This document shows, piece by piece, positions 11,204 through 59,248 of a DNA stretch of 64,000 nt. The DNA comes from Raja brachyura. Lineage: Eukaryota. The DNA is taken from positions 42,098,001-42,162,000 of the forward strand of contig OY740805.1 of NCBI GenBank assembly GCA_963514005.1, written 5' to 3'. Positions within the stretch are counted from its first letter, which is position 1; each line of letters begins with the position of its first letter. The position numbers and the translations under genes were made by a program. The notes under the pieces are model-generated. The model was not told the origin of the DNA and searched no databases. It saw only the letters and a program-made list of their open reading frames with translations.

Positions 11204-11221
11204 ATCCCACTTCTGACACCA
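11204..11221 (-). other. Primer-binding site complementary to tRNA-Leu(CAA) 3' end
   Basis: TGGTGTCAGAAGTGGGAT directly after the 5' LTR. Confidence 0.85.
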
Positions 11222-13629: not shown

Positions 13630-14021
13630 GTGTGTGTGTATTTGTGAATGTGTGTGTATCTGTGTGTGTACATGTGTATATATATGTATATGTATGTGTA
13701 TACATGTATGTGTGCGTTCCCCGGGGAGGGGGACCAGTGGCTGAGGATACAGCCACGGATGGAAGCTGGCAGAGAGCACGGTTGCAGAGTGGAGGATGCA
13801 GCTTCACCTCGCTGTTGTTCCCGGCTGGAGTTACCATCAGTGTCTGGAATCTGCCCTCACCCTGTCTGCAGTCAACCCCAGCTAAAGCTTTTTGTTTCAT
13901 CTTCAGAGTCTGAGGATCGATTTCACACCAAAGTGAAACACAGCTGTGATGGCCATTCACTGGAACACTGACAACCAAGCGTTGAGTAGATTTACCCAAC
14001 TTTGGTAATGTTTACTTTTCT

Positions 14022-15556: not shown

Positions 15557-15576
15557 TTTGACCTGTATCATCCTCT

Positions 15577-15835
15577 GGGGTCAGTTTGACCTGTATCATC
15601 CTCTTGACAGACTCTGCGGCGACTCCCAGACTCCACAATCGAATCTCCGCCACCTCCACCTCCCAATAATGTCTCCCCGATGTGAATCCCTCCAATCCCA
15701 GCACACACGGCCAGTGTGTAAACCTCTTCCTGGTGTCAGGGAGACTCCTCCGGGTCCCGGTCAGCCTCACCCTCTTCCGATCCTCAGACACCTCGAGCCG
15801 CGGACCCGCTGTTTCCACATCCAGGGTGACGGAGA
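15577..15835 (-). pseudogene. Truncated B30.2 (PRY-SPRY) exon, duplicated copy
   Basis: Acceptor cttctcccccag, [42 protein letters not shown]; the SPRY C-terminal half is missing and CR1 abuts the break. Confidence 0.88.
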
Positions 15836-16449
15836 CTGGGGGGAGAAGCAGAGAATCAGAGAGTTCCCGGGGGTCGGGGGGAGACTCGGGCAGCGCGGCC
15901 CCGGGACCGGGGGGAGAGGCCGCTCGGCCTCGGGCACAGGCGGGCGGACAACTGGACGATATCCCGGCTGTTTTCCAGCCCACCAACATCCCATGGACAA
16001 AAACATGTTCCCCGGAGTTTCCTAACTGTGGTGGAAGTGGAGGGGAACCGAGTTAACGGTGAGAAATAAAAACAAACAGCTGGAGGAAGTCCGCGGGTCA
16101 GGCAACACGTGTGTGAGGAAATGACAGAACACGTCTTGGGTCTGGACACTTCTTCATTCTCATGCTTCCCTCTGCTCCCTCCGTAGAAAGAGACAGGGGA
16201 AGGGGTGCAGCAAAATACTTTATTGTTTATCTATGAGTGTGTGTTAGAGTGTGAATGTGTGTTAGTGTGAGAGAGTGTGTGTGGGTGTATGAGTGTGAGT
16301 GAGTGTGAGTGTGCCTGTCTGTGTGTGTGTCACTGTGTGCGTGTTAGTGCGTGTTTTAGTGTATGTGTTAGTGTGTGCCTGTCTGTGTGTACATACACAC
16401 ACACGTACATATATTTACCGGGCAAATCTGGTAATGCTGGCTCAGTGTG

Positions 16450-17450
16450 TGTGGTATTGTGGATAGTGAAGATGGTTGTCAAAAATTGCAGCAGGATCTT
16501 GATCGGTTGGGCAGATGGGCTGAGGAATGGTTGATGGTATTTAATACAGGATTCAATACAAACTTAATGTAGGAGTGCAGTAACATAGTTCCTTGAAAGT
16601 GGCGTCACAGGTAGATAGTGTGCTCATAAAGCGTTTCAGCACATTGGCCTTCATCAGTCACAGTATTGAGTATAGAAGTTGGGAGGTCACGTTACGGATA
16701 TATAAGACGTTGGTGAAGCCACATTTGGAGAGTTGTGTTCAGTTCTGGGCACCATGTTATAGGAAATATGTTGTCAAGCTGTAAAGGGTACAGATAAGAT
16801 CTATGAGGATGTTGCCAGGACTCGAGGGCCTGAGCTATCGAGAGAGGATGAGCAGGCTAGGACTTTACTCCTCGTAGTGCAGGAGGATGAGGGGTGATCC
16901 TATAGAGGTGTACAGTATCGTGAGAGGAATAGATCGGGTAAACGCACAGAGTCTCGTCCCCAGAGTAGGGGAATTAACAATCATAGATTTAAATAAAGGG
17001 GGGGGGGGGGGAGTAGAGTTAACAGGAACCTGCGAGGGAACTCTTTTACACAAAGGGTGATGGGATTATGGAACGAGCTGTCGGAAGAGGTAGTTGAGGC
17101 AGAAGTGGATACAATTATGACAGGCATAGAACGCGTGGACAGTCAGAATCTTTTTCCCAGGGTGCAAATAATCAAAGACTCGAGGACATAGCTTTAAGGT
17201 GAGAGAGGCAAAGGTTAAAGGATTTGTGCGGGACAAGTGTTTTTCCCAGTGTGGGGAGCACCTGGAATGTGCTGCCAGGGTGGTGGTGGAGGCAGATACG
17301 ATAGTGGCATTTTAGATAGACACCTGGATATACAGGGAATGGAGGGATATGGATTATGTGCAGGCAGATAAGAGCTGGTCTTCGCACCATGTTCTGCACA
17401 GACATTGAGGGCCGAATGGCCTGTTCTTGTGCTGTCCTGTTCTACGTTAT
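16450..17450 (+). mobile_element. Old CR1 3' fragments (duplicated at about 22880-24070)
   Basis: CR1 RT C-terminal peptides (ORF 16593..16784 and 23240..23431). Confidence 0.8.
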
Positions 17451-17534
17451 GTTGAACGAATTCATGATCTGCGCTATAGCCGACATAACACACACCATAT
17501 GGTTTTATTGAATTGTACATCAGCCTGTACTTAC

Positions 17535-17561
17535 CATAATATCATTGCACATCCTCGTGCC
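17535..17561 (-). other. Putative 27-nt cytoplasmic micro-exon (duplicate of 24159-24185)
   Basis: tttgtgcag|27 nt|gtaagt; contains TGA in the phase-1 frame. Confidence 0.55.
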
Positions 17562-17699
17562 CTGCACAAAACAGAAATATTTCACATTTTCACTGCAACT
17601 AAAATTGGAAATAAAATAATGACAGCGGGAGCAAGAAACAAAGAGAGGGGGGCACAGTGACACAGCTCTTCACAGCTCCAGGGACCTGGGTTCAATCCT

Positions 17700-20600
17700 G
17701 AATTTGAACAGCTAGATACCAAATTGTACAGCAGAACCAAGAAGGTAATAATCTCTGGATTGCTACTTGAGCCGAGAGCAAATTGGCATAGAGTTAACTT
17801 TCCGTAACAGGACGGAAAGTTAAAGAAGGGATAAGAGAGTAAGGTCAGGTAAAATCAGAACTGGTGTGAGAGGAGGGGAGGTGAATACAGAATTAAAGGT
17901 GTTGTATTTGAATGTGTGCAGTAGAAGAAATAAAGTGGATGAGCTTGTAGCACAGTTACAGGTTGGTGGGCATGATGTTGTGGGAATGACAGAGATGTGG
18001 CTGCAAGAGGATCGGAGCTGGGAGCTGAATATTCAGGGTTATACATCCTATCGGAAAGACAGACAGGTGGGCAGAGCGGGTGAGGCAGCTCTGTTGGTAA
18101 GGAATGAAATTCAGTCCCTTGCGAGGGGTGGCATGGGATCAGTAGGTGTGGAGTCATTGTGGATAGAGCTGAGAAATTATGCAGGTAAAAAGTTTCTAAT
18201 GAGAGTTCTCTACTGGTCCCCAAACAGTAACCAGGATATAGGGTATAAGTTACATCAGAATATACAATTGGCATGTAAGAAAGGCATTACTACGGTGGTG
18301 ATGGGAGATTTCAATATGCAACAAGGTTGGTACTGGACCCCAAGAATAGGAATTTCTGGAATGTTTCCGAGATGGATTCTTAGAGCAGCTTGTGGTGGAG
18401 CCCACCAGCAAAAAATGAAACTCTGGATTTAGTGTTGTGTAATGAACCGGATTTGACAAGGGAACTCGAGGTACAGGAACTACTAGGAGGTAGCGACCAC
18501 AATATGATAAGTTTCAACCTGCAATTTGAGAGGGAGAAGGTGAAATCAGATGTGTCGGTATTGCAGTTGAGCAAAGGGGACTATGGAGGCATGAGGGAGG
18601 AGCTGGCCAAAGTTGACTGGAAAGGGACCCTAGCAGGACTGAAAGTGGAACAGCAATGGCAGGAATTTCTGGGAATAATTTGGAAGATGCAGGATCTTTT
18701 CATTCCAAAGAAGAAGAAAGATTCCAGGTCGAGAATGAGGCGACCGTGGCTGACAAGGGAAGTCAAAGACTGTATAAAACTAAAAGAGAAGGCGTATAAC
18801 ATTGGAAAGATTAGTGGGAAGCCAGAGGATTGGGAAGCTTTTGAAGAACAACAGAAGGTAACTAAAAAGGCAATACGATGAGGAAAGATGAAATATGAAG
18901 GTTAGCTAGCTGGAAATATCAAAAGGATAGCAAGAGTTTCTTCAGTTATACAAACAGTGAGAAAGATGTAAGAGTGTATGTTGGACAGCTGGAAAACGAT
19001 GCAGGAGACGTGATAATGGAGAATAAAGAAATGGAAGAGGAGTTGATGAAATTTTTTGCAACAGTCTTCACAGTGGAAGCCACCAGCAACGTGCCTGAAA
19101 TGCAAGAGAGTCAGGGGGTGGAAGTTAGTGGAGTGGCTGTTACTAAGGAGAAGGTGCTGGGAAGCTGAAAGGGCTGAAGGTGGATAAGTCACCTGGACTG
19201 GATAGACTGTACCCCAGGGTTCTGCACGAGGTGGCTTTAGAGATTGTGGATGCATTAATACATAGATAGATACATAGCATCTGTGATATTTCAAGAATCA
19301 CTAGAGTTAGGAGTGGTTCCAGATGATTGGAAATTTGCCAATATTACCCCGCTGCACAAGAAGGGAGCAAAGCAGAATATTGGGAATTATAGGCCGGTTA
19401 GTCTGTCTTCGATGGTTGGTAAGATTTTAGAGTCCATTATAAGGGCTGGGCCTACGGAGAACGTGCTTCATGATAAAATAGGTCAAAGTCAGCATGGTTT
19501 TGTGAAGGGGAGGTCTTGCCTGAGGAATCTGCAGGAATACTTTGCAGAAGTAAACAGCAGGACAGACAAAGGAGATTTACTGGATGCTGTTTATCTAGGT
19601 TTTCAGAAAGCCTTTGATAAGGTGCCACACGTGAGGCTGCTCAGGAAGATGAGAGCCCATGGTATCAAAGGGCAGATACCAGCATGGATAGCAGGTTGGC
19701 TGGATGGCAGAAGGCAAAGAGTGGCAATAAAGGGGGTTATTCGGGTTGGCTGCCAGTGACTAGCGGAGTTCTGTGGGGGTTGGTGCTGGGGCCGCTACTC
19801 TTCACGTTTTATATTACTGATTTGGATGAGGGAATAGAAGGCTTTGTGGCTAAGTTTGCAGATGACACGAAAATAGGTGGAGGGGCAGGAAGTGTAGAGA
19901 AAGCAGGGACGCTACATAAGGACTTGGACAGGTTGGGAGAGTGGGCAGAGAAGTAGCAAATGGAATGTAGTGTAGCAAAGTGTGGAGTCGTGCATTTTGG
20001 TGGCTGCAATAAAGACATAGACTATTTTCTAAATGGGGAGAGAATCCAGAAATCAGAGGTGCAAAGCGATTTGGGAATGCTGGTGCAGGATTCCCTCAAA
20101 GTTACTCTGCAAGTTAAAAGTAAAGTGGATAGGTATATGGACGAGAAGGGAATGGAGGGGTATGGTCTGAGTGCAGGTAGATGGGACTAAGGGAAAATAA
20201 ATGGTCGCCACGGACTGGAAGGGCCGAGAAGGCCTGTTTCCGTGCTGTAATTGTTATATGGTTATATGGTTATAAGTCCAAACGGTAGTAAAGAAAGCAA
20301 ACTCAATGCTAGCATTTATTTCAAGAGGGCTAGAATACAAAATTAGGGATGTAATGCTGAGGATCTATAAGGTACTGGTCTGGCCGTTTTTGGAGTATTG
20401 TGAGCAATGTTGCGCCCTGTATCCGGGGAAGGATGTGCTGGCTCTGGGATGGTCCAGATGAATTTACAAGAATGATTCCAAGAATGAGTGGTTTAACATA
20501 CGATGAGCATTTGTCAGCACTGGGCTTGTACTCGCTGGAGTTTAGATGAATGCTATTAAATAGCAAATAGCCTTGGATAGAGTGGATGTGGAGAGGATGT

Positions 20601-20910
20601 TTCCACTAGTGGGAGAGTCGAGGACTAGAGGTCATAGCCTCAGAATTAAAGGACGTTCCTTTATGAAGGAGATGAGGAGGAATTTGAGGAGCAGATAGAG
20701 GGTGGTGAATCTGTGGAATTACTTGCCACAGACGGCGGTGGAGGTGAAGTCAATTGATATTTCTAAGGCAGAGATAGTTAGGTTCTTGATTAGTACTGGT
20801 ATCAGGGGTGATGAGGAGAAGGCGGGAGAATGGGGAGAGATACATCAACCATGATTGAATGGCCAAGTAGATTTGTTGGGCCGAATGGCCTAATTCTGAC
20901 CCTATCACCA
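17700..20910 (+). mobile_element. CR1 LINE ORF2 (endonuclease + RT), degenerate, with nested CR1 tail
   Basis: MGDFN, SDHNMI, NYRPVSL, QHGF, KAFDKV, KFADDTK motifs across broken frames. Confidence 0.9.
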
Positions 20911-21049
20911 AATAGCATGTGACCTTTAGACCTGACCTTGGAGACTTGTGGGGTGCACATATTCCCTGTGAGTCTGTAGGTTTCATGTGGGTGCTGTGCC
21001 CCCCCCCCTCCACGCCCCACATCCCAAAGACCGGAAGTTTGCTTATCTT

Positions 21050-21582
21050 TTACTCACCCGGAACAGAACCGGAGCAGATTCTCATCCACTTGTCTTCATC
21101 CCAAGGCCAGAAGAAAGGATAAAGTTTCTCCGTGAATGTGTTCCCAGTGAAGGTGTGGAGATGGGACTTGGTGTCCGCGTCGTAAAATGCAACTGTCCCG
21201 GACTCGTAACTGAGATAAACTCCCACCCTCCCGGGGATGGGACGGGCGGGGAGAGGGGATGGAGGGGAGGTGAGTGCATCAAACCCGTCATCCCGCCGCC
21301 TGATGCTCCAGACTCCAGTCTTCGGCCTCAGTGTGACCCGTCCATTCCTCTCCACAGACTCTGCGGCGACTCCCAGCCTCCAGCGCCGACTCCCCGCCAC
21401 CTCCACCTCCCAGTAATGTCGCCCCGATGTGAATCCCTCCGATCCCAGCACACACGGCCAGTATGTAAACCTCTTCCCGGTGTCAGGGAGACTCCTCTCG
21501 GTCAGGGTCCGTCTCACCCTCTTCCGATCCTCAGACACCTGGAGCCGCGCATGCGCTGTTTCCACATCCAGGGTGACGGAGA
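21050..21582 (-). CDS. Intact terminal B30.2/PRY-SPRY exon (phase 1) of a butyrophilin-like gene
   Basis: Acceptor AG 21584-21583; open 177-codon frame [44 protein letters not shown] ending TAA at 21050; a TRIM origin is not excluded by the domain alone. Confidence 0.9.
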
Positions 21583-21671
21583 CTGGGGGGAGAAGCAGAG
21601 AATCACAGAGTCCCCGGGGGTCGGGGGGAGACTCGGGCACAGGCGGGCGGACAACTGACACCTTGCCCGGG

Positions 21672-22220
21672 GTTTGTCCAAATCTGAGGAAGGACATTAT
21701 TGCCATAGAGGGAGTGCAGCGAAGGTTCACCAGACTGATTCCTGGGATGTCAGGACTGTCTTATGAACAAAGACTGCATAGACTTGGTTTATACTCTCTA
21801 GAATTTAGGAGATTGAGAGGGGATCTTATAGAAACTTACAAGATTCTTAAGGGGTTGGACAGGCTAGATGCAGGAAGATTGTTCCCGATGTTGGGGAGGT
21901 CCAGGACAAGGGGTCACAGCTTAAGGATAAGGGGGAAATCCTTTAGGACCGAGATGAGAAGGAATTTTTTCACACAGAGAGTGGTGTGTCTCTGGAACTC
22001 TCTGCCACAGAGGGTAGTTGAGGCCAGTTCATTGGCTATATTTAAGAGGGAGTTAGATGTGGCCCTTGTGGCTAAGGGGATCAGAGGGTATGGAGAGAAG
22101 GCAGGTACGGGATACTGAGTTGGATGATCAGCCATGATCATATTGAATGGCGGTGCAGGCTCGAAGGGCCGAATGGCCTACTCCTGCACCTAATTTCTAT
22201 GTTTCTATGTTTCTATGTTT
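21672..22220 (+). mobile_element. Young CR1 3' end with (TTTCTATG)n tail
   Basis: ORF tail LGLYSLEFRRLRGDLIETYK; near identical to 50620-51150; absent from the duplicated intron at about 15960. Confidence 0.9.
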
Positions 22221-22494
22221 CACCACAACAACATCGGGTGGACAACACACATCTGTCACGGAGTTTTTGTCACGCTTCCTCATTCGCATGCTTCCCTCTG
22301 CTCCCTCCGCAGAAAGAGACGGGAAGGGGTGCAGCAAAATACTTTACTCTGTTTGTCTGTTAGTGTGTGTGTGTGCATGAGAATGCCTCTCTGTTTTCCT
22401 GTCTGTGTACATACATACACACGTACACATATTCACCGGGCAAAACTGATAATGCTCTGTCAGTGCGTGCATAAATTGAGCGGCATCTGTGCAG

Positions 22495-22745
22495 AGGTGA
22501 GGGGTTTGAGCAAGACAAGTGGGTTCAGGTGAGGGGGTGGAGCAAGACAAGTGGGTTCAGGTGAGGGGGTGGAGCAAGACAAGTGGGTTCAGGTGAGGGG
22601 GTGGAGCAAGACAGGTGGGTTCAGGTGAGGGTGGGAGGGTGGAGCAAGACAGGTGGGTTCAGGTGAGGCGGGGAGGTGGAGTAACTCAGGTGGGGGGGGT
22701 GGGGGGTGGGGGGTGGGGAGCAACACACGTGGTTCAGGTGAGGCG
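22495..22745. repeat. 32-bp minisatellite aggtgagggggtggagcaagacaagtgggttc
   Basis: 4-5 good copies then decayed copies. Confidence 0.88.
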
Positions 22746-24158
22746 GGGTGATTGGTAGAACGACCAGGTGGGGAAAGAAGGGTGGGGACAGGAACCGAGG
22801 CCGGAGGTGATGAGCTGAAGAAAAAGGGATGAGAATGATGGATTCTGACAAGAATTGAAGGTGTGGTGAGAAACGTAGAACCAGAGGAAGGTTGGAGCGC
22901 ATTGGATCCAAGAAGAGATAGCTAATTGGATAGAACATTGGCTTCATGTAGGGAAGCAGACGGTGATGAGGGAAGGTTGTTTTCCGGACTGGAGGCCTGT
23001 GACTAGTGGTGTGCCTCACGGTTCTGTGCTTATATCAATGATCTAGATGAGAATGTACATGGCATGATTAGCAAGTTTGCAGACAACACAAAAGTGGGTG
23101 GTCTTGTGGATAGTGAAGATGGATGTCAAAAATTGCAGCAGGATCTTGATCGGTTGGGCAGATGGGCTGAGGAATGGTTGATGGTATTTAATACAGGATT
23201 AAATATAAATTTAATGTAGGAGTGCAGTAACATAGTTCCTTGAAAGTGGCGTCACAGGTAGATAGTGTGCTCATAAAGTGTTTCAGCACATTGGCCTTCA
23301 TCAGTCACAGTATTGAATATAGAGGTTGGGAGGTCACGTTGCGGATATATAAGATGTTGGTGAAGCCACACTTGGGGTGTTGTGTTCAGTTCTGGGCACC
23401 ACGTTATAGGAAATACGTTGTCAAGCTGTAAAGGGTACAGATAAGATTCACGAGGATGTTGCCAGGACTCGAGGGCCTGAGCTATAGGGAGAGGGTGAGC
23501 AGGCTAGGACTTTATTCCTCGTAGAGCAGGAGGAAGAGGGTTGATCAGAAAGAGGTGTAGAGTATCGTGAGAGGAATAGATCGGGTAAGCGCAGAGTAGG
23601 GGCATCAACGACCATAGGATTAAAGTGGTGGTGGGAGTAGAGTTAACAGGAACCAGAGAGGGAACTCTTTTACAAAAAGGGTGGTGGGTATATGGAACAA
23701 GCTGTTGGAAGAGGTGCTTGAGGCAGAAGTGGATACTATTATGACAGGCATAGAACGGGTGGGCAGTCATAACCTTTTTCCCAGGGTGAAAATAATCAAA
23801 GACTTGAGGACATAGCTTTAAGGTGAGAGGAGCAAAGGTTAAAGGATTTGTGCGGGGCAAGTGTTTTTCCCAGTGTGGGGAGCACCTGGAATGTGCTGCC
23901 GGGGGTGGTGGTGGAGGCAGATACGATAGTGGCATTTTAGATAGACACCTGGATATACAAGGAATGGAGGGATATGGATTATGTGCAGGCAGATAAGAGA
24001 TGGTCTTCGCAACATGTTATGCACAGATATTGTGGGCCGAATGGCCTGTTCTTGTGATGTACTGTTCTACGTTATATTGAACCATTCATGATCTGCGCTT
24101 TAGCCAACGTAACACACACCAGATAGTTTTACTGAATTGTACATCAGCCTGTACTTAC

Positions 24159-24185
24159 CATAATATCATTCCACATCCTTGTGCC
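24159..24185 (-). other. Putative 27-nt cytoplasmic micro-exon of BTN-like gene A
   Basis: tttgtgcag|ggcacaaggatgtggaatgatattatg|gtaagt; positional homologue at 59249-59275. Confidence 0.55.
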
Positions 24186-24329
24186 CTGCACAAAACAGAA
24201 ATATTTCACATTTTCACTGCAACTAAAATTGGAAATAAAATAATGACAGCGGGGAGCAAGGAACAAAGAGAGGGGGGCACAGTGACGCAGCTCTTCACAG
24301 CTCCAGGGACCTGGGTTCAATCCTGAATT

Positions 24330-25345
24330 TGAACAGCTAGATACCAAATTGTACAGCAGAACCAAGAAGGTAATAATCTCTGGATTGCTACTTGAGCTGA
24401 GAGCAAATTGGCATAGAGTTGAGAGGATTAGAGAGGTGAACGAATTAGAAGTATTAGAGATTGTGGACGCATTAATGCATAGATAGCATCTGTGATATTT
24501 CAAGCATCACTAGAGTCAGGAGTGGTTCCAGATGATTGGAAATTTGCCAATATTACCCCGCTGCACAAGAAGGGAGCAATGCAGAATATTGGGAACTAGA
24601 GGCCGGTTAGTCTGATTTTGGTAGTTGGTAAGATATCAGAATCCATTATAAAGGCTGAGTTTACGGAGAACTTGGTTCATGATAAAATAGGTCAAAGTCA
24701 GCTGTTTTGTGAAGGGGAGGTCTTGCCTGACGAATCTGCAGGAATACTTTGCAGAAGTAAACAGCAGGACAGACAAAGGAGATTTACTGGATGGTGTTTA
24801 TCTAGATTTTCAGAAAGCCTTTGATAAGGTGCCACACGTGAGGCTGCTCAGGAAGATGAGAGCCCATGCTATCAAAGGGCAGATACCAGCATGCATAGCA
24901 GGTTGGCTGGGTGGCAGAAGGCAAAGAGTGGCAATAAAGGGGGTTATTCTGGTTGGCTGCCAGTGACTAGCGGAGTTCTGTGGGGGTCGGTGCTGGGGCC
25001 GCTACTCTTCACGTTGCGTATTACTGATTTGGACGACGGGATAGATGGCTTTGTTGCCAAGTTTGCGGATGATATGAAAATTGGTGGAGGGGCAGGTAGT
25101 ATAGAGAAAGTAGTGACTCCGCAGAAGGACTTGGACAGGTTGGGAGAGTGGGCAGAGAAGTGGCAGATGCAATATAGTGTAGCAAAGTGTGGAGTCATGC
25201 ATTTTGGAAGTAGGAATAAAGATGCAGACTATTTTCTACATGGGGAGGGAATCCAGAAATCGGAGGTGCAAAGCGACTTGGGAGTGCTGGTGCAGGATTC
25301 CCCAAATGTTAATCTGGAAGTCAAATCGGTAGTAAAGAAACCAAA
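24330..25345 (+). mobile_element. CR1 RT fragment (duplicate of 19240-20110)
   Basis: ORFs 24709..24966 and 24891..25376. Confidence 0.85.
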
Positions 25346-34512: not shown

Positions 34513-34632
34513 CTTTAATCATTTTATCTTCTTTTCTGTGTAACATTATATTGAAAGCAGCAGCCGTTACCACGAGGGCCACAAACGCCCAGAAAACCAG
34601 CAGCCAAGGGTTGGTTTTAGGAAATAACTCAT
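34513..34632 (-). CDS. Transmembrane exon (120 nt) of BTN-like gene A: DELFPKTNPWLLVFWAFVALVVTAAAFNIMLHRKEDKMIK
   Basis: atatag| and |gtgaga splice sites, phase 1-1, hydrophobic stretch followed by basic residues, directly downstream of the IgC exon. Confidence 0.85.
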
Positions 34633-35039: not shown

Positions 35040-35046
35040 CTGCAAT

Positions 35047-35794
35047 GAATGAATGGATGAATGAATACATTTATTGGCCAAGTATTCACATACAAGGAAT
35101 TTGCCTAGGTGCTCCGCCCACAAGTGACAACATGCCATACAGTGACAGTTTGGAATGACACATAAAACATTAAACATTAATAATAACACATTATCATAAA
35201 CATGTGCATTAAATAAAATACCAGAGCAAAAGGAGGCTACAGATTTTTGGTTATTGAGTAGAGCTACTACTCATGGAAAAAAGCTGTTTTTATGTCTGGC
35301 TGTTGTAGCTTTGGCAGTCGCCTTCCAGAGGGAAGTGAATCAAAGAGTTTGTTGCCAGGGTGAGAGGCATCAGAGATGATCTTACCCGCTCGTTTCCTGG
35401 CCCTTGCAGTTTACAGTTCATCAACGGAGGGAAGGTTGCAGCCAACTACCTTCTCAGCTGATCGGACAATTCGCTGCGGCCTCCGGATGTCGGGCTCAGT
35501 GGCTGAGCCAAACTAGAACGTGATGGAGAAGGTGAGGACCATCATAGAATTGGACCATCATTGCCTGTTGCAGATTGGCCTTCCACAGCTACCGCATGAA
35601 GTACATCCTCTTTTGGGCCTTTTTGACTGTCGCGTCGATGATGGCCCCCCCATTTAGGGCCCTTGGAGATGATGGTTCCCAGGAATTTAAAGGACTCCAC
35701 AGATGTGACTGTGGTGTTGTTGATGGTGAGTGGTGTGAGGGGAGGGGGAGCTCTCCTAAAGTCTACATTTAATTCCACCGTCTTAAGAGCATTG
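35047..35794 (-). mobile_element. Rex1/Babar-like LINE, 3' half with (ATTC)n tail
   Basis: ELNVDFRR..VESFKFLGTIIS; continues the RT half at 37095-37569. Confidence 0.85.
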
Positions 35795-36118
35795 TTTAAT
35801 TAGTGGGAAAGGAAAGTCTACAAGAATATGTGGCTATTGAACTGCAGAGGCTAGTTTGTACCGAAGGCAGACACAAAATGCTGGAACAACTCACTGGGTC
35901 AGGCAGAGGGATAGGTGATGTTTCCGGTCGAAAATATATGCAGCAGCTTTCGTTATGCATTATTGAATCTTTCATTGAAAGACTAAGAGCAAAGTATCCA
36001 GACCAATATCATTTCGAAGAGTTCCAAACTATAACAAAATAATCACATTTGCTTTCTTTAAATCGCCAGCAGGAAAGATTCTACAAATATTCTGAAGCTT
36101 AACCATTGTATTTTCTAG

Positions 36119-36466
36119 AGGAGTTCGCTGTGATTGTGCCGGACTATCTAGTGGTGGCCATGGTGGGTGAAGATGCCGTGTTGGAATGTCAGAAGGTACC
36201 GGATACATCACTGGACGCTCTGGAGGTCCGATGGTTTACAACGAGCCCGGGGTCACCGGTACATTTGTACACCGGCGGCCAGGACCGAGCTGAGGTGCAG
36301 GACGGGGCTTACCGAGGGAGGACGGAGCTTATTCGGGAAGAGTTTCCCCGTGGAAACGCATCGCTTAAACTGAAGAGGGTCAAAGTATCAGATGCTGGAA
36401 TGTACACGTGTTCCATCAGCACCCCCACGTCCAGTCACCAGGCGGCGCTGCGGCTGCAGGTTGAAG
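36119..36466 (+). CDS. IgV exon (348 nt, open frame) of BTN-like gene A, inverted relative to the rest of the gene
   Basis: ttttctag| EFAVIVP..VGEDAVLEC..LEVRW..VHLY..YRGRTEL..GNASLKL..V.VSDAGMYTC..LQVE |gtgagt, phase 1-1. Confidence 0.93.
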
Positions 36467-37094
36467 GTGAGTCCCTATGGAGGCATAGAGTTCACACCAG
36501 GGTTTACACCGGGAATGTCAGTAAGCTGCCCCCCAGACTGGGATTTTACTGGGAAGGTCAAGGGTTACTGACAATGTTGACCGCTGCCTCGGCACAGGCT
36601 GGGAGTGACACGGCCTGGAACGGAATGGCAGCGGCGAGGTTGTGTGTAGGAAGGAACTGCAGATGCAGGTTTACACCGAATGTAGACATAAAATGCAGGA
36701 GTAACTCCGCGGGACAGGCAGCATGTGTGGAGAGCAGGAATGGGTGACGTTTCGGGTCGAGACCCATCTGAAGACTGAGAATCATGGGAGAGGGAGTCTA
36801 GAGATATGGAAGGGTAAGGTGGGAAAAAGATGAATCAAAGGGGACGCGGTTCAAGTAAAATGTAGAACAGATCATTGTTAGCTGAAGGGGAAGGTGACAA
36901 CGAGGCGATGGGGCGGTAACGCAGCGGTACCCGGTCACCCAACCAATGATCGTTGGAGTTCCCACCGCTGCTCTTTCTGTGGCTCTTCAGGCCCCGGCGT
37001 CATCTGCTGCTCACTGACCCAGCACACGGAAAGCCCTTTCCATGCCGAGATACATGTGTAACTATCGTGTTTACCGATTACATTCCGATTGCAG

Positions 37095-37569
37095 TTTGAA
37101 CATCGGGCCAATAGATCTGTGGATGACGCAGTCAACCTAGTCCTGCACTTCATCCTCCAGCACCTAGACTGCCAGGGGACCTATGCGAGGATTTTGTTTG
37201 TGGATTTTAGCTGTGCATTCAACACCATTGTGCCAGAGCTACAAACTCTCCAAATTGACTGTGCCTGAACCCCTCCGTCAGTGGATCACCAGCTTCGTGA
37301 CAGACAGGAAGCAGCATGTGAGGCTGGAAAAGCACATTTCAGCCCCGCAGACCCTCAGCATAGGAGCACCTCAAGGCTGTGTACTCTCGCCTCTCCTCGA
37401 TTCTCTCCACACCAATGACTGCACCTCCACAGATTCCCCTGTCAAGCTTCTCAAGTTTGCGGACGACACAACCCTGATTGGACTCATCCAGGATGGGGAG
37501 GAATCTGCCTACAGACAGGAAGTGGCACAGCTGGTGTCCTGGTGCCTTCGTAACAACTTGGAGCTCAAT
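37095..37569 (+). mobile_element. Rex1/Babar-like LINE, RT half (inside the inversion)
   Basis: GAPQGCVLSPLL, KFADDTTLIGLI, NNLELN. Confidence 0.88.
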
Positions 37570-37676
37570 AGGTCATGGGTACACAGAACACTCTGCCTTC
37601 ACTTTGTTGTACACTTTGATCCAGCTTCTGAACCCCCACACACCCCCCCTCCCCCCACACCCCCAGAATTTTTGAA

Positions 37677-38898
37677 GAGGTTACTAGGGAAATTGATGAG
37701 GGTAAAGCAGTGGATGTTGTCTATATGGATTTCAGTAAGGCCTTTGACAAGGTTCCCCGTGGAAGGTTGGTTAAGAAGGTTCAATCTTTTGGTGTTAATG
37801 GCGGAGCAGCAAGATGGATTCAACAGTGGCTGAATGGGAGATGCCAGAGAGTAATGGTGGATGGCTGTTTGTCAGGGAGGAAGCCGGTGACCAGTGGGGT
37901 GCCTCAGGGATCTGTGTTGGGTCCACTGTTGTTTGTCATGTGCATCAATGATCTAGATGATGGGGTGGAAAATTGGATAAGTAAGTATGCAGATGATACT
38001 AAGATAGGTGGTGCTGTGGATAATGAAGTAGATTTTCAAAGTTTACAAAGAGATTTGGGCCATTTGGAAGAGTGGGCTGAAAGATGGCAGATGGAGTTTA
38101 ATGCTGATAAGTGTGAAGTGCTACATCTTGGCATGACAAATCAAAATAGGAAATACATGGTAAATGGTAGGGAATTGAGGAATGCTGTGGAACAGAGGGA
38201 TCTAGGAATAACTGTGCACAGTTCCCTGAAGGTGGAATCGCATGCAGATAGGGTGGTAAAGAAATCTTTTGGTGTGCTGGCCTTTATAACTCAGAGCATT
38301 GAATATAGGAGTAGGGAAGTGATGTTAAAATTGTACAAGGCATTGGTAAGACCAATTCTGGAGTATGGTGTACAATTTTGGTCGCCTAATTATAGGAAGG
38401 ATGTCAACAAAATAGGGCGAGTACAGAGGAGATTTACTAGAATGTTGCCTGGGTTCCAGCAACTAAGTTACAGAGAAAGGTTGAACAAGTTAGGTCTTTA
38501 TTCTTTGGAGCGCAGAAGGTTAAGGGGGGTCTTGATTGAGGTCTTTAAAATGATGAAAGGGATAGACAGAGTTGACGTGGATAAGCTTTTCCCATTGAGG
38601 GTAGGGAAGATTCAAACAAGAGGGAATGACATGAGAATTAAGGAACAGAAGTTTAGGGGTAACATGAGGGGGAACTTCTTTACTCAGAGAGTGGAATGAT
38701 CTTCCAGCAGAAGTGGTGGAGGTAGGATCGATTTTAACATTTAAAAGTAAATTGGATAGGTATATGGACGGGAAGGGAATGGAGGCGTATGGTCTGAGTG
38801 CAGGTGGATGGGACTAGGGGAAAATAAATGGTGGGCACGGACTGAAAGGGCAGAGAAGTCCTGTTTCCGTGCTGTAATTGTTGTATGGTTATATGCTT
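37677..38898 (+). mobile_element. CR1 RT 3' portion
   Basis: ORF 37710..38699 with [10 protein letters not shown] and YADD; gttatatg tail. Confidence 0.93.
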
Positions 38899-39016
38899 AT
38901 AGTCCAAATCCTGCAATCTGGATGTAATCGGTGAAAACAATTGTTACATGTGTATCTTGACATGGAAAGGGCTTTCCGTGTGCCGGGTCAGTGAGCAGCA
39001 GAGGACGCCGGGGCCC
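38899..39016 (-). pseudogene. Intron end, acceptor and about 12-nt stub of the IgC exon of BTN-like gene B
   Basis: gattgcag|gatttggacta matches 62608-62720 and 37000-37094. Confidence 0.75.
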
Positions 39017-44375: not shown

Positions 44376-44829
44376 CTAGAAAATACAATGGTTAAGTTTC
44401 AGAATATTTGTCGAATCTTTCCTGCTGGCGATTTAAAGAAAGCAATTGTGATTCTTTTGTTATATTTTGGAACTCTTCCAAATATCATTGGTCTGGATAC
44501 ATTGCTCATATGAAAGATTCAATGCATAATAAAAGCTGCTGCATATATTTTCGACCGGAAACATCACCTATTCTTCTGCCTGACCCAGTGAGTTGTTCCA
44601 GCATTTTGTGTCTGCCTTCGGTATAAACTAGCCTCTGCAGTTCAATAGCCACATATTCTCGTTGTCTTTCCTTTCCCACTAATTACACAGGTCAGGGGTA
44701 CACAGAACACTCTGCCTTCACTCTCCCGCACACCAAGGAATCCAGCAAGTTGAAAAATGTCCTTTAAAGAAACAAAGCTGCTGCCCTTCCCCAGTCTGTG
44801 ATCCATGTAACTCCCAGACACGCAGCAAT

Positions 44830-46645
44830 CAGGCACGTGCCGTGAGTAATTACTCAGGGTAGGCTCTCAGTCCGCTTTAAAAAAACTAAACCGCGCATGC
44901 GCAGATTGTTCTCCCCGTTAAAGAAATAAATAAATAAAGAAAGAAAGACAGTGACATTTCAATTTGCCCAAGGCTTCCTAGTCCTAGACCAATTGGGGGA
45001 ACAGTTCCTTTCACAGCGTGTGTAGTCTGTGCCAGGGGTAAAGTTGTGGGGAGGGCACGAGTGTTGAGTAGGGCGCGAAGCCACACACCGTAGCTGGGGA
45101 TAGAAGCAGCTCTGGTATGAGCAGCCACCGGGACCCTTCAGCAGAACTGGCCACCCCTTCAGCGCCTTCTGCCGGCCCGCTCACCTTTAGCAGTGCTCTC
45201 CGTCGGAACACCTGTCACCTGCCGTTAACCGAGCTCATGTCAGCGGCTTCCTGCATATCCTTAAATTCCCACAGCCGAGTAACCTCAATCGCGCTGTTGG
45301 AATTTAAGGGCATGAGTGAGGCCAGCGAGTGGTAGGAGAGAGGTTTTTAGACGGAGAGTTGCCAGAGGTGAGCGGGGACCGGCATAAGGAGCTAAGGTGG
45401 CGGGGGTACACAAAAGGCTGGAGAAACTCAGCGGGTGCAGCAGCATCTAAGGAGCGAAGGAGATAGGCGACGTTTCGGGCTGAAACCCTTCTACAGACTG
45501 GCTAGGGATCAGGGAAATGAGAGATATAGACGGTGATGTGGAGAGATAAAGAACAATGAATGAAAGATATGCAAAAAAGTATCGATGATAAAGGAAACAG
45601 GCCATTGTAAGCTGTTTGTAGTGTGAAAATGAGAAGCTAGTGCGACTTGGGTGGGGGAGAGATAGAGAGAGGGAATGCCAGGGCCCGAGGGCTGAGGGAG
45701 AGGTGGGAAGGGGAGGAGGCAGCAAGGGTTAACAAAATTGAGAAAATTCAATGTTTAAGCCCAGAGGATGCAGACTCCCCAAGCGGAATATGAGGTGCTG
45801 TTCCTCCAACTTGCGGTGTTGCTCACTCTGGCCGTGGAGGAGGCCCAGGACAGAGAGGTCGGATACGGAATGGGAGGGGGAGTTGAAGTGCTGAGCCACC
45901 GGGAGGTCGGGTTGGTTATTGCGGACCGAGCGGAGGTGTTCGGCGAAACGATCGGCAAGCCTCCGCTTGGTCTCACCGATATAGATCAGCCGGCATTTGG
46001 TGGCGGCTGGTTCCGCTGTCCGGCAAGGCGGCCGTTCAGCCACCCGAGCTACTTCTCTCTCTCCTCTTCCCCCCCCCCCCCCCCCGGCCTCAGAGCGGTG
46101 GCATTGCATGCCCCCGTGCAAGGAGCGTCGCAAGTGGCTGCTCCCGACCCCTCATTCATAAAATTCGTGCCCTCCCCGCAACTTTACCCCGGGCCAGACC
46201 CCTCAAACGCTGTGAAAGGATCTCTCCCCCCACCCCCACACCCCGGGAAATACAGTATTTAAAAACATAAACACAAAATGTACTTACCACATTATTGGTA
46301 CACGACAAACCATAGTTTAAAACCCCGCCAAGAAACTAGCTCTGCGCATGCGCAGTAGACTGATGCGCATGTGCAGTGCAGCAAAGGCAGAATTTCTGCT
46401 GCCTTCAGCCCCGCTTGAAACTGACGGCTTCAGGCAGCGCCGACGGCACGTGGGCTACACAGAGCTTCCCGTGTTACAAGCGCTGCGGATGAAAGGCACG
46501 GAGAATTATGCCTACCTAAGAGATCGGTCTCTTACATAGGCATCATTCTCCCATGCCGTTACTATTTATATTTAGTTATTACTATGTTATAATTTTAGTC
46601 AGGGTAGGCAGTGCCTACCTTGCCTACCCTGACGGCACGTGTCTG
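44830..46645. mobile_element. Non-autonomous hAT-type transposon, copy 2, containing a Penelope insertion
   Basis: TIRs caggcacgtgccgt / acggcacgtgtctg; exact 8-bp TSD gcagcaat at 44822-44829 and 46646-46653. Confidence 0.92.
45404..45998 (-). mobile_element. 5'-truncated Penelope-like insertion
   Basis: Near identical to 4650-5250; flanking duplication ggtggcgg at 45396-45403 and 45999-46006. Confidence 0.9.
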
Positions 46646-47169
46646 GCAGCAATGTTGTACACTTTGATCCAGAATCTGAAATGCCTCCCGTGATCATCAG
46701 TGTGATGAGAGGTTTAAATATTTAAGATAGAAATGGTGAATTGTGAGGCAAGCAGACTCTTCCCAGCTTTAAGTGCTGGAACTGTGGTGATAATGACAGG
46801 GAAAGAACCCCGTGGATGGTGGAAATCTGAAACGGGAAATGCCAGCTAGTGTGTGAATGGCAAGTACAGGCCTGATGTGTCCACTCTGCAGAAACACACG
46901 CCACATGGAGCTGTGTAGTAGAGGCTGCTGAATGCCATGGAAACAGACAGTATAATAATGTAAATAGACCATTCATGGGGAGAGCAGATTGGGAGAGGTG
47001 GGAAGATGCTTGGTGCGTCTGTTCAATTGGAAATGGCCAGCACATAATTAGAGTCATAGAGTGATACTGTGTGGAAATGGGTCATTCGGCCCAACTTGCC
47101 CACACCGGCCAACATTTCCCAGCTGTACTAGTCCCACCTGCCCGCCTTTGGTCCATATCCCTCCAAACA

Positions 47170-47853
47170 TGTCCTGTCCATGTACCACACCTGTCCTATC
47201 CATGTGACACACCTGTCCTATCCATGTGACACACCTGTCCTATCCATGTGACACACCTGTCCTATCCATGTGACACACCTGTCCTATCCATGTACCACAC
47301 CTGTCCTATCCATGTACCACACCTGTCCTATCCATGACACACCTGTCCTATCCATGACACACACCTGTCCTATCCATGTACCACACCTGTCCTATCCATG
47401 TACCACACCTGTCCTATCCATGTACCACACCTGTCCCATCCATGTACCACACCTGTCCCATCCATGTACCACACCTGTCCCATCCATGTACCACACCCGT
47501 CCCATCCATGTAAAACACCCGTCCTATCCATGTACCACACCTGTCCCATCCATGTAACACACCTGTCCCATCCATGTACCACACTTGGCCTATCCATGTA
47601 CCACACCTGGCCTATCCATGTAACACACCTGTCCCATCCGTGTAACACACCTGTCCCATCCGTGTACCACACCTGTGCTATCCGTGTACCACACCTGTCC
47701 CATCCATGTACCACACCTGTCCTATCCATGTACCACACCTGGCGTATCCATGTACCACACCTGTCCTATCCATGTACCACACCTGTCCTATCCATGTACC
47801 ACACCTGTCCTATCCATGTACCACACCTGTCCTATCCATGTACCACACCTGTC
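47170..47853. repeat. 22-bp minisatellite (cacctgtcctatccatgtacca) of about 31 copies, resuming at 51150-51200
   Basis: Head-to-tail units with no spacers. Confidence 0.95.
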
Positions 47854-50800
47854 CCCAGTTCTGGGGAAGGTGGGACCAGTACAAACAGGACGGTCTGCAC
47901 CTGGGCTGGAATGGAACCAATGTCCTTGGGGGAGTGTTTGCTAGTGCTGTCGGGGAGGATTTAAACTAATGTGGCAGGGGATGGGTACAAGAGCAGAGAG
48001 GCAGGTGGGTGTAAAATGAGGGTAGAGGCAATAGGTAGCAAGGTGAAAAATAATAGTGGCAGGCAGACAAAACCAGGGCAAAAATCAAAAAGGGCCACTT
48101 TTCAACATAATTGTATAAGGGGTAAGAGCGTTGTAAAAACAAGCCTGAAGGCTTTGTGTCTCAATGCAAGGAGTATTCGTAATAAGGTGGATGAGTTGAA
48201 CATGCAGATAGCTATTAATTATTTTGATATAGTTGGGATCACGGAGACATGGCTCCAGGGTGGCCAAGGCTGGGAGCTGAACATCCAGGGATATTCAATA
48301 TTCAGGAGGGATAGAGAGAAAGGAAAAGGAGGTGGGGTAGCGTTGCTGGTTAGAGAGGAGATTAATGCAATGGAAAGGAAGGACATTAGCGTGGAGGATG
48401 TGGAATCGGTATGGGTAGAGCTGCGAAACTCTAAGGGGCAGAAAACGCTGGTGGGTATTGTGTACAAGCCACCTAACAGTAGTAGTGAAGTTGGGGAAGG
48501 TATCAAACAGGAAATTAGAAATGCGTGCAACAAAGGCAAAACAGTTATAATGGGTGACTTCAATCTACATATAGATTGGGTGAATCAAATTGGCAGGGGT
48601 GCTGAGGAAGAGGATTTTTTGGAATGTATGCGGGATAGTTTTCTAAACTAACATGTAGAGGAACCAACGAGAGAGCAGGCTATTTTAGACTGGGTTTTGA
48701 GTAATGAGGAAGGGGTAGTTAGCAGTCTTGTTGTACGTGCCCCCTTGGGCAAAAGTGCCAATAATATGGTTGAGTTCTTCATTAGGATGGAGAGTGACAT
48801 TGTTAATTCAGAAACAATGGTTCTGAACTTAAAGAAAGGTCACTTTGAGGGTGAATTGGCCAAGATTGACTGGCAATTAATTCTAAAAGGGTTGACGGTG
48901 GATATGCAATGGAAGACATTTAAAGACTGCATGGATGAACTACAAAAATTGTTCATCCCAGTTTGGCAAAAGAATAAATCGGGGAAGGTAGTGCATCCGT
49001 GGATAACAAGGGAAATCAGGGTTAATATCAAAGCAAAGGATGATGCGTACAAAGTAGCCAGAAAAAGCAGCATACCAGAGGACTGGGAGAAATTCAGAGA
49101 CCAGCAGAGGAGGACAAAGGGCTTAATTAGGAAAGGAAAAATAGATTATGAAAGAAAACTGGCAGGGAACATAAAAACTGACTGCAAACGTTTTTATAGA
49201 TATGTGAAGAGAAAGAGATTAGTTAAAACAAATGTAGGTCCCTTGCAGTCAGAAACAGGTGAGTTGATCATGGGGAACAAGGATATAGCGGACCAATTGA
49301 ATAACTGAAGAAGGGTCGGACCAATTGAATAACTGAAGAAGGGTCTCGACCCGAAACGTCGCCTATCTCCTTCGCTCCTTAGATGCTGCTGCACCCGCTG
49401 AGTTTCTCCAGCTTTTTGTGTAACCCCCAATTGAATAACTACTTTGGTTCCGTCTTCACTAAGGAAGATATAAATAATCTGCCGGAATTAGCAGGTCAAA
49501 GGAGGAATTGAGTGAAATCCAGGTTAGTCGGAAGTGGTGTTGGGTAAATTGAATGGATTAAAGGCCGATAAATCCCCAGGGCCAGATAGGCTGCATCCCA
49601 GAGTACTTAAGGAAGTAGCTCCAGAAATAGTGGATGCATTAGTGATAATCTTTCAAAACTCTTTAGATTCTGGAGTAGTTTCTGAGGATTGGCGGGTAGC
49701 AAACGTAACCCCTCTTTTTAAGAAGGGAGGGAGAGAGAAAACGGGGAATTACAGACCAGTTAGTCTAACATCGGTAGTGGGGAAACTGCTAGAGTCAGTT
49801 ATTAAAGATGGGATAACAGCACATTTGGAAAGTGGTGAAATCATTAGACAAAGTCAGCATGGATTTACGAAAGGTAAATCATGTCTGACGAATCTTGTGG
49901 AATTTTTCAAGGATGTAACTAGTACCGTGGATAAGGAAAAACCAATGGATGTGGTGTATCTGGACTTCCAGAAGGCTTTCGACATGGTCCCACTTAAGAG
50001 ATCAGCATACAAACTTAAAGCAAATGGTATTGGGGGTTCAGTATTGATGTGGATAGAGAACTGGCTGGCAAACAGAAAGCAAAGAGTAGGACTAAACGGG
50101 TCCTTTTCACAATGGCAGGCGGCGACTAGTGGGGTACCGCAAGGCTCAGTGCTGGGACCCCAGCTATTTACAATATATATTAATGATCTGGATGAGGGAA
50201 TTGAAGGCAATATCTCCAAGTTTGCGGATGACACTAAGCTGGGGGGCAGTGTTAGCTGTGGGGTGGATGCTAGGAGACTGCAAGGTGACGTGGATAGGCT
50301 GGGGGAGTGGGCAAATGTTTGGCAGATGCAGTATAATGTGGATAAATGTGAGGTTATCCACTTTGGTGGCAAAAACAGGAAAGCAAACTATTATCTAAAT
50401 GGTGGCCGATTAGGAAAAGGGGAGATGCAGTGAGACCTGGGTGTCATGGTACACAAGTCATTGAAAGTAGGCATGCAGGTGCAGCAGGCAGTGAAGAAAG
50501 CGAATGGTATGTTAGCTTTCATAGCAAAAGAATTTGAGTATAGAAGCAGGGAGGTTCTACTTCAGTTGTACAGGGTCTTGGTGAGACTACACCTGGAGTA
50601 TTGCGTACAGTTTTGGTCTCCAAATCTGAGGAAGAACATTATTGCCATAGAGAGAATGCAGAGAAGGTTCACCAGACTGATTCCTGGGATCAGGATTGTC
50701 TTATGAAGAAAGACTGGATAGACTTGGTTTATACTCTCTAGAATTTAGGAGATTGAGAGGGGATCTTATAGAAACTTACAAAATTCTTAGGGGGTTGGAC

Positions 50801-53719: not shown

Positions 53720-54420
53720 GTTTGTCGCCGCGCTCGGTGTTCGGGACGGTGACGCCGGCCCAGAGTTTCAGAGAGAGGAGCAGCAAGTTCCCTTCTTGCA
53801 ATCGCGGCCACATCCCGCCCGCCCGTCGCAGACTGAACGTGACCACTGGGATTAAATAAATCCCGGTGACCGGCCAGCGCTCCCGGGGTGTCACCGACTG
53901 CCGCCTCCCTCCCTCCCTGACCCGCACCCGCTCTCCCGAGCGACCAGACTCGCCGCTCCGGCCCCGGAAACCTACCGGGACTGGGACCGAGCCGGACCCC
54001 GGGGGCAGTGGGCCGGGCCGGGCCGGGGCAGCGGGGGTTCCCTTTCACCGAATGCCGCTGGCAAACAGGTGAGTGAGTGATCGCTTTGTCCCAGCGGCTC
54101 CGGCGCCGTGAGTTGTCCCGGAGCCCCACTCACCTGATCAATCCCCGCCCGCCCGGCGCGGCCGCTTCCCCTCCCTCCCTCCCTCCGGCCGGGAACCTCC
54201 TTGTCCCCGGGGGCCGAGTCTGTCACCGGCGCCCAGCAACAGAGCGGAGTAACCGGCGTCAGAGAGAGCGCTTTCTTCAGCCTGGGAACGCAGGGGAACG
54301 GCGGCCGCCGAGGGAGAGAGAGCGAGAAATCCTCTCAGGTTTTCATAAAATGGAAGCCAGAAATGGGCGCGGTGGAGAAAGTTAAACCAGGTGAGGTTTC
54401 CTCAATGCGGCCCGGAATGT
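53720..54420. promoter_or_regulatory. CpG-rich island-like unique sequence, possible promoter/first exons
   Basis: High GC and CpG density outside recognisable TEs; + strand donor-like sites cag|gtgagt (about 54068) and cag|gtgagg (about 54390). Confidence 0.45.
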
Positions 54421-57370: not shown

Positions 57371-57994
57371 AGAGCTGTAGGCAGCGGTGCAAGCATTCAA
57401 GGCAATCAGAATGATGCAGGACGGCATTGGTGGAATGAAAGGACGCAAAGTGATCGATCATCCTCCTGCACGCCAAGGAATGAAGTCGGAGCCTGCCCAA
57501 CCTCGCCCTATAGCACAACCCCTCAAATGCTGCCAGCATTCTGCTAAAATAAACCGTATTGAATAAGTCAATGTATCTGCTTACTCTTCCTGGAATGATC
57601 TTGTACAACAACATTTCTAATTCATCCTTCTCCAGGAGTGAGGTATACATGAGGTTTTACACTGGTGGTGATTTTAGCTTGAAAACGCGGGTTCAGGACA
57701 GGCACCAATGGTTCTGAGCTCCTGCCCAGCCTTCCCAGTTCAGGGAACAGAGTGAAGAATGGAAGCAGAAGGATAGCGGGTCCGGAACTCGGGCTTTTGT
57801 TTTGATTTGGGCCGATATTATTTATTTTATTTACTGAACGTATTTGTTTGTGTCTGAAGTTATCTATTGAATATTGTTTTCACAGATTGTTTTGCTGCTG
57901 CCAGTGAGAATGTAATTATTAATTATTATGTAAATAATTTGCTTTGAAGAAGGGCTCGAGCCCGCAACCAGAGATCCTGCCTTTTCTCAAGGTC

Positions 57995-58234
57995 CTCTCC
58001 ACAGACTCTGCGGCGACTCCCAGCCACCAGCCCCGACTCCCCGTCATCTCCACCTCCCAGTAATGTCTCCCCGATGTGAATCCGTCTGATCCCAGGAGAG
58101 AAGACCAGTATCTAAACTTGTTCCCCGGTGTCAGGGAGTCCCCTCTCGGTCCCGATATTTCTCACCCTCTTCCCATCCTCAGACACCTCGAGCCGCGAAT
58201 GCGCTGTTTCCACATCCAGGGTCACCCCTGGAGA
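57995..58234 (-). pseudogene. Truncated, frameshifted B30.2 exon of BTN-like gene C
   Basis: VTLDVETAHSRLEVSEDGK, extra G near 58125, then [24 protein letters not shown], then the homology ends. Confidence 0.85.
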
Positions 58235-59248
58235 CTGGGGAGAGAACCAGAGAATCAGAGAGTCGCCGGGTGTCGGGGCGAGACGCCTGCAGCGCGCGCG
58301 GCCCCGGGACTGAGAGAGGTCCGAGTGGGATTGAAGGACAGAGTGAGGAGCAGGTGGATCCGGGGAATGGGGAAAGCTGGGGGGGGGGGGGGGCATGGGA
58401 CGTGTCAAGGGCAGGAGGGCGAGCTGCTGGGAAGAGCAATTGGTGCTGAGCAGAGTGAGAACGGGGTGCGTCGACCCGTGCGGCAAGGGTGAGAAGGGAC
58501 AGTACAAATGGGCAGGGGAGCGTCACTTTAGAGATACAGCATAAAACAGGCCCTTCGGCCCACCGAGTCCGCACCGACCAACGATCACCCCGTACACTAA
58601 CAGTACCTTACAACGTGGGACAATTTACAGTAGACAATTGATCCTCAAATTAAAAAATCATCTTTGTAGTGTGGGAGGGAACCAGGACACCTGGAGATAA
58701 CCAACGCGGTCACGAGGAGAATGTAAAACTCCGCACCGGCAGTACCCATATTCAGGATGGAACCCGTTCTCTGGCGCTGTGAGGCAGCAGCTCTACCCTC
58801 TGCTCCACTGTGGCGCCCGAAATGGCAGTGGTGGGTTGAGCGGCAGAGGACACGGCAGGTGGGTTGATGATGGGGAAGAGCGTTGTGGGTAGGATTGGGG
58901 AGACGATGCTGCGGGGGAGAAATGGGATAACTGGAGATTGAGAAGAAAGAGGGGCAACGATGGGAAGTAAAAGAGCGCGAGGCACGGGGGCGAGCAAGTT
59001 GGGTGGGTGGCGGAGTGGAGGAAAGGTGGTAGGAAGTGAGAGAGGTAGCGGTGGAGACGAAAGTGACAGTGCAAGCGTGAGCAAGAGGGATAAAGAGGAG
59101 AGCAACGTCACTGTACCGAGGTACATGTGACAATAACGCTTCATCGAATGGGTCACAAAACATTAAAGGCAGAATGGGATGGCTCTGTGAGCCGGAATAG
59201 AATGTGAAATAGTACAAAGTATTGGGATGCAAAATTATCTGTACATAC

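Follow-up and report, generated by a model that had tools for sequence, protein, structure and literature searches.

The closest described relatives of the locus analysed here are the skate butyrophilin 1A1-like genes (P0001 of Amblyraja radiata, P0003 of Rhinoraja longicauda, and P0006 and P0007 of Leucoraja erinacea, all of them predicted records, not tested proteins), with which it shares the leader-IgV-IgC-transmembrane (TM)-linker-B30.2 order and IgV domains that are 81-91% identical. It differs from them in the inversion of one IgV exon and the frameshift in the other, in the LINE lying at the IgC acceptor and in the lack of one linker exon. A single leader followed by more than one IgV module also occurs elsewhere, since the annotation of P0001 places three tandem IgV domains behind one leader. 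The reshaping of tandem butyrophilin paralogs by a structural variant is also described for human BTNL8*3. BTNL8*3 is a polymorphic 56-kb deletion in segmental duplications that yields a confirmed fusion protein (PMC3729544), whereas the lesion described here is an inversion, for which any protein product or polymorphism is hypothetical.

Two described groups of rearrangements resemble the inversion itself. In Drosophila subobscura, the O7 inversion and a 2,026-bp microinversion, the latter similar in size to the present segment, carry inverted end duplications in the inverted state only, as the present segment apparently does, and a break inside an earlier insertion is reported as well (PMC7584159). 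The duplications are, however, 58 and 534 nt long there and 3-4 nt here, where the comparison is made via a B-like site, that is, the corresponding site of a paralogous module. In the LINE-1 flanking-inversion cases, the insertion likewise goes together with a retained target-site duplication and an inversion on the kb scale, but the breakpoint lies at the integration site (10.1101/2024.12.14.628481), while in our case a completed LINE was cut midway. A literature search by title or abstract start, with most subscription papers outside its scope, found no paper on this locus.

The window, that is, the whole 64,000-nt stretch of Raja brachyura DNA analysed (GCA_963514005.1, contig OY740805.1, 42,098,001-42,162,000 of the forward strand), most likely holds a small inversion made by end-joining within an immune gene cluster that evolves by birth and death, a neatly resolved, ordinary lesion. 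The reading we hold to be probable, with moderate confidence, is that a 1.78-kb germline inversion was formed by end-joining of a staggered break in a LINE and a blunt break in an intron, in a gene copy that was already decaying.

Layout of the butyrophilin locus

The exon layout was established by mapping skate butyrophilin-like proteins onto the window, and the exon boundaries and domains were examined separately. Judged by the homology of its IgV, IgC, TM and B30.2 exons to those of butyrophilins, this is a skate butyrophilin (immune-receptor) locus. Its exons and the elements at the junction of its two modules, B and A, are the following:

51777-51723, - strand, leader (signal peptide) exon, the sole matching leader found in the window
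44375-44027, - strand, IgV exon of module B in sense orientation, 349 nt, with a +1 frameshift
38897-39015, - strand, IgC stub of module B, native acceptor plus ~14 nt of exon, then a stop
37669-38896, + strand, second LINE fragment, at the junction of modules B and A
36119-36466, + strand, IgV exon of module A, 348 nt, AG/GT boundaries, open frame, Pfam V-set E 1.2e-13
35039-34755, - strand, IgC exon, open
34632-34513, - strand, TM exon, open
30016-29990, - strand, first linker exon, 27 nt
21582-21050, - strand, B30.2 (PRY-SPRY) exon, open to the stop

The IgV exon of module A, the closest named relatives of which are P0001 of A. radiata (91%), P0003 of R. longicauda (88%) and P0006 of L. erinacea (87%), lies on the + strand, opposite to the IgC, TM, linker and PRY-SPRY exons. 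This strand arrangement had been proposed for IgV, IgC, TM and B30.2 in the initial annotation, and both the exon mapping and the Pfam domains bore it out. The order of the exons suggests that the B30.2 exon at 21582-21050 belongs to the same locus as IgC and TM. At one residue, IgV-A has Leu where all 19 pattern-matched homologs (of 41) have Pro.

The same annotation spoke of a gene A and a gene B. The loss of IgV-A from the sense strand stood, but the division into two separate genes did not, as a single leader serves both modules. Module A has no leader of its own, and module B lacks a full IgC, TM and B30.2; since IgV-B is in addition frameshifted and followed by an IgC stub, A and B are not two working genes. 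No intact sense-strand IgV that could be spliced in frame was found in the locus: IgV-A is inverted, while the 349-nt IgV-B, whose frameshift is read from the assembly, terminates at codon 77, which leaves 173 nt to the next junction. A stop that far upstream of a junction would trigger mRNA decay. Splicing to the acceptor of the stub gave a computed product of 22 aa.

The upstream intron of module A ends near 37636 at the second LINE, which we take to be CR1-like, and beyond this element lie the native acceptor, ~14 nt of IgC and module B. Within the junction (37669-39015), the LINE is 5'-truncated, its 3' end lies ~14 nt into the IgC exon, and its 5' end abuts a C-rich tract and the intron of module A. 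Either a deletion fusing tandem paralogs or a LINE-associated tandem duplication could have produced this arrangement; if the former, it may be a fusion of a 5' half to a 3' half like that in BTNL8*3 (PMC3729544). Two further observations concern module B. Its upstream intron has ~1.9 kb of extra sequence (44723-46652) that is related to 12186-13630, has no counterpart in module A and is probably a transposon with a nested element, and a tandem array with a unit of ~22 nt occupies 47163-47855 between IgV-B and the leader.

The inverted segment and the origin of its ends

The inversion and the interrupted LINE comprise the following features:

35791-37569, inverted segment including both 4-nt ends, 1.78 kb
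35791-35794, + strand, left breakpoint ATTG, within the LINE, 748 nt from the LINE 3' end
37566-37569, + strand, right breakpoint CAAT, intronic, upstream of IgV, with 3 letters more than module B
44675-44722, + strand, module B counterpart of the intron breakpoint, without the 3 extra letters
37095-37569, + strand, 5' part of the LINE (RT fragment of a truncated non-LTR retrotransposon), carried within the inversion
35047-35794, - strand, 3' part of the LINE, with AATAAA at 35075-35070 and a (TTCA)n tail that is now the IgC acceptor tract
35040-35046, + strand, first copy of the target-site duplication, CTGCAAT, containing the AG of the IgC acceptor
37088-37094, + strand, second copy of the target-site duplication, in reverse complement; this is the native acceptor, which is now inverted and joined to the 5' end of the LINE

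The breakpoints proposed earlier, attg at 35791-35794 and caat at 37566-37569, were confirmed: the inverted identity between them is exactly 4 nt and its outward extension is 0 nt. A match of at least 4 nt is expected at a random cut pair with p=0.017. When 35795-37565 was re-inverted by a script, the LINE reading frame became continuous over the cut and module A became collinear with module B (94% over 807 columns). The claim that this operation rejoins the LINE therefore held, with a continuous RT-type frame and a restored 7-bp target-site duplication. The accompanying claim, that the restored intron is contiguous in module B, held for collinearity but not for identity at the break, where module A has three more letters, AAT. 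The A/B alignment contains six gap events in 774 columns, one of them exactly at the break, and the other private insertions of module A are 3 and 9 nt long.

The ancestral arrangement is indicated by P0007 of L. erinacea. This predicted protein consists of IgV, a read-through of the V-C intron and IgC, and maps to 36064-37093 on the + strand and then to 35046-34756 on the - strand. As it is continuous and contains no LINE, the ancestral order is un-inverted and LINE-free. Together with the junctions and the re-inversion, this order supports the proposal that an inversion removed IgV from the sense strand of its gene, and the segment is likely to be a real germline inversion.

For an independent view of the break sites, public sequencing runs were used, of which 22 were listed as matches, with a best share of 0.65 and no RNA run among them, and four were compared with the window, all as assembled contigs. 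At the LINE site, the letters duplicated in the ATTG/CAAT ends are single-copy: the reading frame is continuous with one copy, and 12 contigs of LINE copies from run X4 agree with this. At the intron site, three of them are absent from module B and from record 20 of X4, which is B-like. Compared with a B-like ancestor without these letters, and with the 4-mer being single in the LINE family, the inversion lost nothing and gained 3 nt. An independent insertion at the break is unlikely, since only five other gap events occur in the 774 columns. These sequences make it probable that the ATTG/CAAT ends arose as a fill-in duplication at a staggered break. Inverted duplications that are confined to the inverted state are regarded as the footprint of staggered-break end-joining, but the same paper adds that replication-based repair or repair synthesis can also produce them instead of staggered cuts (PMC7584159). 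A short inverted match at both ends of an inversion can accordingly be a repair product and not its cause.

The initial annotation had instead explained the inversion by microhomology-mediated joining, with the 4-mer already present at both ancestral sites, which would have the same consequence for the gene. We regard this as unlikely, though with a substantial remainder of probability. Both junctions can indeed be written with the same 4-mer without loss, a match with the low random expectation given above, and the other private insertions of module A (3 and 9 nt) show that it could have gained the three letters earlier. Compared with a B-like ancestor, however, only 2 nt are common to both break sites, so that the 4-nt match would require a separate, A-specific 3-nt insertion exactly at the break. 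Neither module B nor the un-inverted contig (record 20) of X4 has the three letters, so that a 4-bp microhomology predating the inversion is disfavoured. Moreover, microhomology-mediated joining usually deletes sequence, and no sequence was lost here. An inversion by homologous recombination (NAHR) was rejected, as none of the eight short inverted pairs found (13-22 nt) lies at the breaks.

Returning to staggered-break end-joining, the proposed course of events has four steps. First, two IgV modules would have been brought under one leader, with the second LINE and the IgC stub at their junction; this layout is observed, and it may have originated by deletion between tandem paralogs or by internal duplication. 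Second, the 5'-truncated LINE would have inserted in sense orientation at the IgC acceptor, where its 7-bp duplication is observed. Third, breaks in the LINE and upstream of IgV would have been rejoined in reverse, with no loss and, relative to module B, an observed gain of 3 nt, which may come from filling in a stagger of 3-4 nt with letters of the LINE side. Fourth, IgV-B would have become frameshifted and the second linker exon lost, as both are seen in the assembly. The predicted outcome is that no normal IgV-bearing butyrophilin is made from the locus. Most likely the case matters little beyond its readable event order, namely module duplication or fusion, a LINE at the acceptor and an inversion through the LINE.

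The LINE at the IgC acceptor and the predicted products

The LINE fragment is ~1.2 kb long and 5'-truncated, has a (TTCA)n tail and is flanked by the 7-bp duplication; its piece at 37270-37569 matched RVT_1 with E 5.3e-06 (below Pfam's cut-off). It had been described as Rex1-like. The RVT_1 fragment, the short-repeat tail and the target-site duplication uphold its nature as a LINE, while the family name Rex1 is a presumed label. In the accessible part of PMC6274825, Rex1 is covered in general terms only.

The LINE insertion predates the inversion, since the break lies 748 nt inside the LINE, both target-site copies are intact, and the frame and the duplication are restored by re-inversion. In the computed pre-inversion transcript, splicing from IgV to the native acceptor, then joined to the LINE 5' end, met a stop one codon after IgV and gave a product of 135 aa. 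We infer that this acceptor was used into the LINE before the inversion. The AATAAA of the LINE lies 30 nt before the remaining IgC acceptor. The LINE had thus probably already damaged splicing before the inversion, but a full 455-aa product was still possible via the LINE-tail acceptor (computed), so inactivation by the LINE is likely as a prediction only.

The inversion is likely to have struck late, in a gene copy already in decay, and would then belong to the usual degeneration of duplicated genes. Between 29990 and B30.2, a motif scan that made no splice-site demand did not detect the second linker exon, whereas it found a copy in the neighbouring gene at 59273; an earlier scan requiring splice sites had found none in either gene. 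Open frames persist in IgC, TM, the first linker and B30.2, which is compatible with recent decay as well as with retained function.

Retained function would mean that the locus still works as an IgV-less butyrophilin, its leader being spliced to IgC via the LINE-tail acceptor, and this we consider improbable. The leader and IgC join phase 1 to phase 1, with a predicted product of 339 aa in frame to the stop of the intact B30.2, and the tail-derived acceptor has 16 pyrimidines in 21 positions with no upstream AG within 40 nt. The hijacked native acceptor was removed by the inversion. Upstream of the leader, there is a CpG-rich stretch (53900-54400) with a donor site near 54133 on the - strand, which may hold a promoter and a non-coding first exon belonging to the leader at 51777. 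On the other hand, splicing would have to skip both IgV-B and the stub acceptor, the AATAAA precedes the acceptor by 30 nt, and the second linker exon is missing. When IgC was used as the query for IgV-less homologs, none was found among nine, and all nine had a V-set (a weak result, from 72 candidates). If RNA showed an IgV-less butyrophilin with a transposon-tail acceptor, it would be a natural test of IgC-TM-B30.2 without IgV in a cartilaginous fish.

A related possibility, which we think has little chance of being right, is that the inversion acted as a second-site suppressor, which flipped out the captured acceptor together with IgV and left the (TTCA)n tail as acceptor. If so, the 339-aa leader-IgC-TM-B30.2 product could act as a membrane-anchored B30.2 sensor or dominantly modify paralog dimers, and it might be either fixed or still segregating in a single skate lineage. 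Such an IgV-less product, if made, would be of interest because B30.2 of human BTN3A1 binds phosphoantigen and BTN3A chains form dimers (PMC6050389).

It is similarly improbable that the inversion arose in one step during the integration of the LINE, with remodelling of endonuclease-made ends. LINE-1 insertions with a flanking inversion of ~1 kb and a preserved target-site duplication are described in 10.1101/2024.12.14.628481, and here both the retained LINE end (37566-37569) and the LINE target site (35040-35046) end in CAAT, a coincidence noticed post hoc that may hint at the same endonuclease. The described cases, however, break at the integration site, and the present break is 748 nt inside a contiguous LINE copy, whose 5' junction looks like that of any truncated copy and has the usual orientation relative to its duplication. 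Twin priming was ruled out by the same normal 5' junction and by the position of the break within the contiguous LINE.

Contig evidence and other features of the window

Five pieces of X1 contigs, 1170 letters in all, showed 9 differences from the window, but X1 may still be the source sample. Its record 7 spans the intron-LINE junction and matches the window over 205 nt without a difference. Another X1 contig has 34 aligned letters on either side of 35819 and so reaches 35786 or beyond, over the left break; this reading rests on the from_end column, taken as the smaller distance to the aligned end, which agreed at 34541, 34568 and 34581. Un-inverted controls stopped at 35791, 35793 or 35797 under seven of eight scoring schemes, and the most lenient scheme ran all of them to the edge. 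The left breakpoint is thus probably crossed by an X1 contig. In X4, the 12 contigs of other LINE copies run past 35794 into sequence now found at 37565 downward, and record 20, an un-inverted module whose indels resemble those of module B, has its alignment end at 35793, where it would be expected to end if the three letters were missing.

It is very unlikely that the inversion is an assembly artefact. None of the 32 contig pieces listed bridges either inversion junction, and the region is full of repeats and paralogs; against this, the two junctions are reciprocal and base-exact with a 3-nt gain, the breakpoints have no repeat that could mislead an assembler, and X1 supports the left junction indirectly. 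X1 probably carries the inverted junction, while X4, which has the same organism label, listed only the B-like un-inverted contig there, in assemblies whose contigs collapse paralogs. The case would gain importance if both orientations segregated with different expression.

Some further differences were seen among the contigs. In the IgV region (36171-36562), the contigs of both X1 and X4 stop at 36562, the point at which module B passes into a LINE, while one from X7 continues through it. The ratio of IgV to TM contig depth was ~1.7-1.9 in X1 and X4 and ~1.1 in X3. The depth ratios and the ends at 36562 give a weak hint that the two-module layout is shared within the organism of X1 and X4 (organism A). 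Four positions of the TM exon (34541-34581) set the window apart from all four runs, and at the two of these that change an amino acid the window matches P0001; paralog swap, gene conversion or collapsed contigs are possible causes.

One inverted pair flanks the segment:

35732-35748, + strand, 17-nt G-rich arm, complementary at 16 of 17 positions to 37645-37661, both arms outside the breakpoints

The pair may have helped to bring the two sites together, or its right arm may have been patched in at the B/A junction with LINE sequence as the template. Only 2 of 613 equally spaced flank pairs of the window reach this length, one of them probably being this locus itself. A programmed, reversible on/off switch of recombinase or RAG type, one sense of the on/off allele suggested earlier, has next to no probability, even though an Ig-type exon is cleanly inverted and flanked by this imperfect pair, because the arms are of low complexity and are separated from the breaks by 43 and 76 nt, neither recombinase sites nor repeats at the breakpoints were found, there is no CAC within 5 nt of either break, the best site within 40 nt has seven mismatches to the RSS consensus, and one break is inside a transposon that has no counterpart in the related skate record.

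The window contains other traces of duplication and decay. The neighbouring butyrophilin copy (57994-62875) is also broken: its IgC is open and both linker exons are present, the TM exon has a stop and a codon gap, and B30.2 is frameshifted and truncated. A second, truncated B30.2 exon was detected at 15836-15573, and two pairs of duplicated intron blocks, 16447-17795 and 23094-24420 (92%) and 19237-20118 and 24454-25325 (90%), lie nearby; by these similarities, 15573-25325 appears to be a further tandem duplication at the 3' end of the locus. A 1390-aa open frame on the - strand (7190-11359) has, judged by eye, the gag/protease-like features of an LTR retrotransposon.
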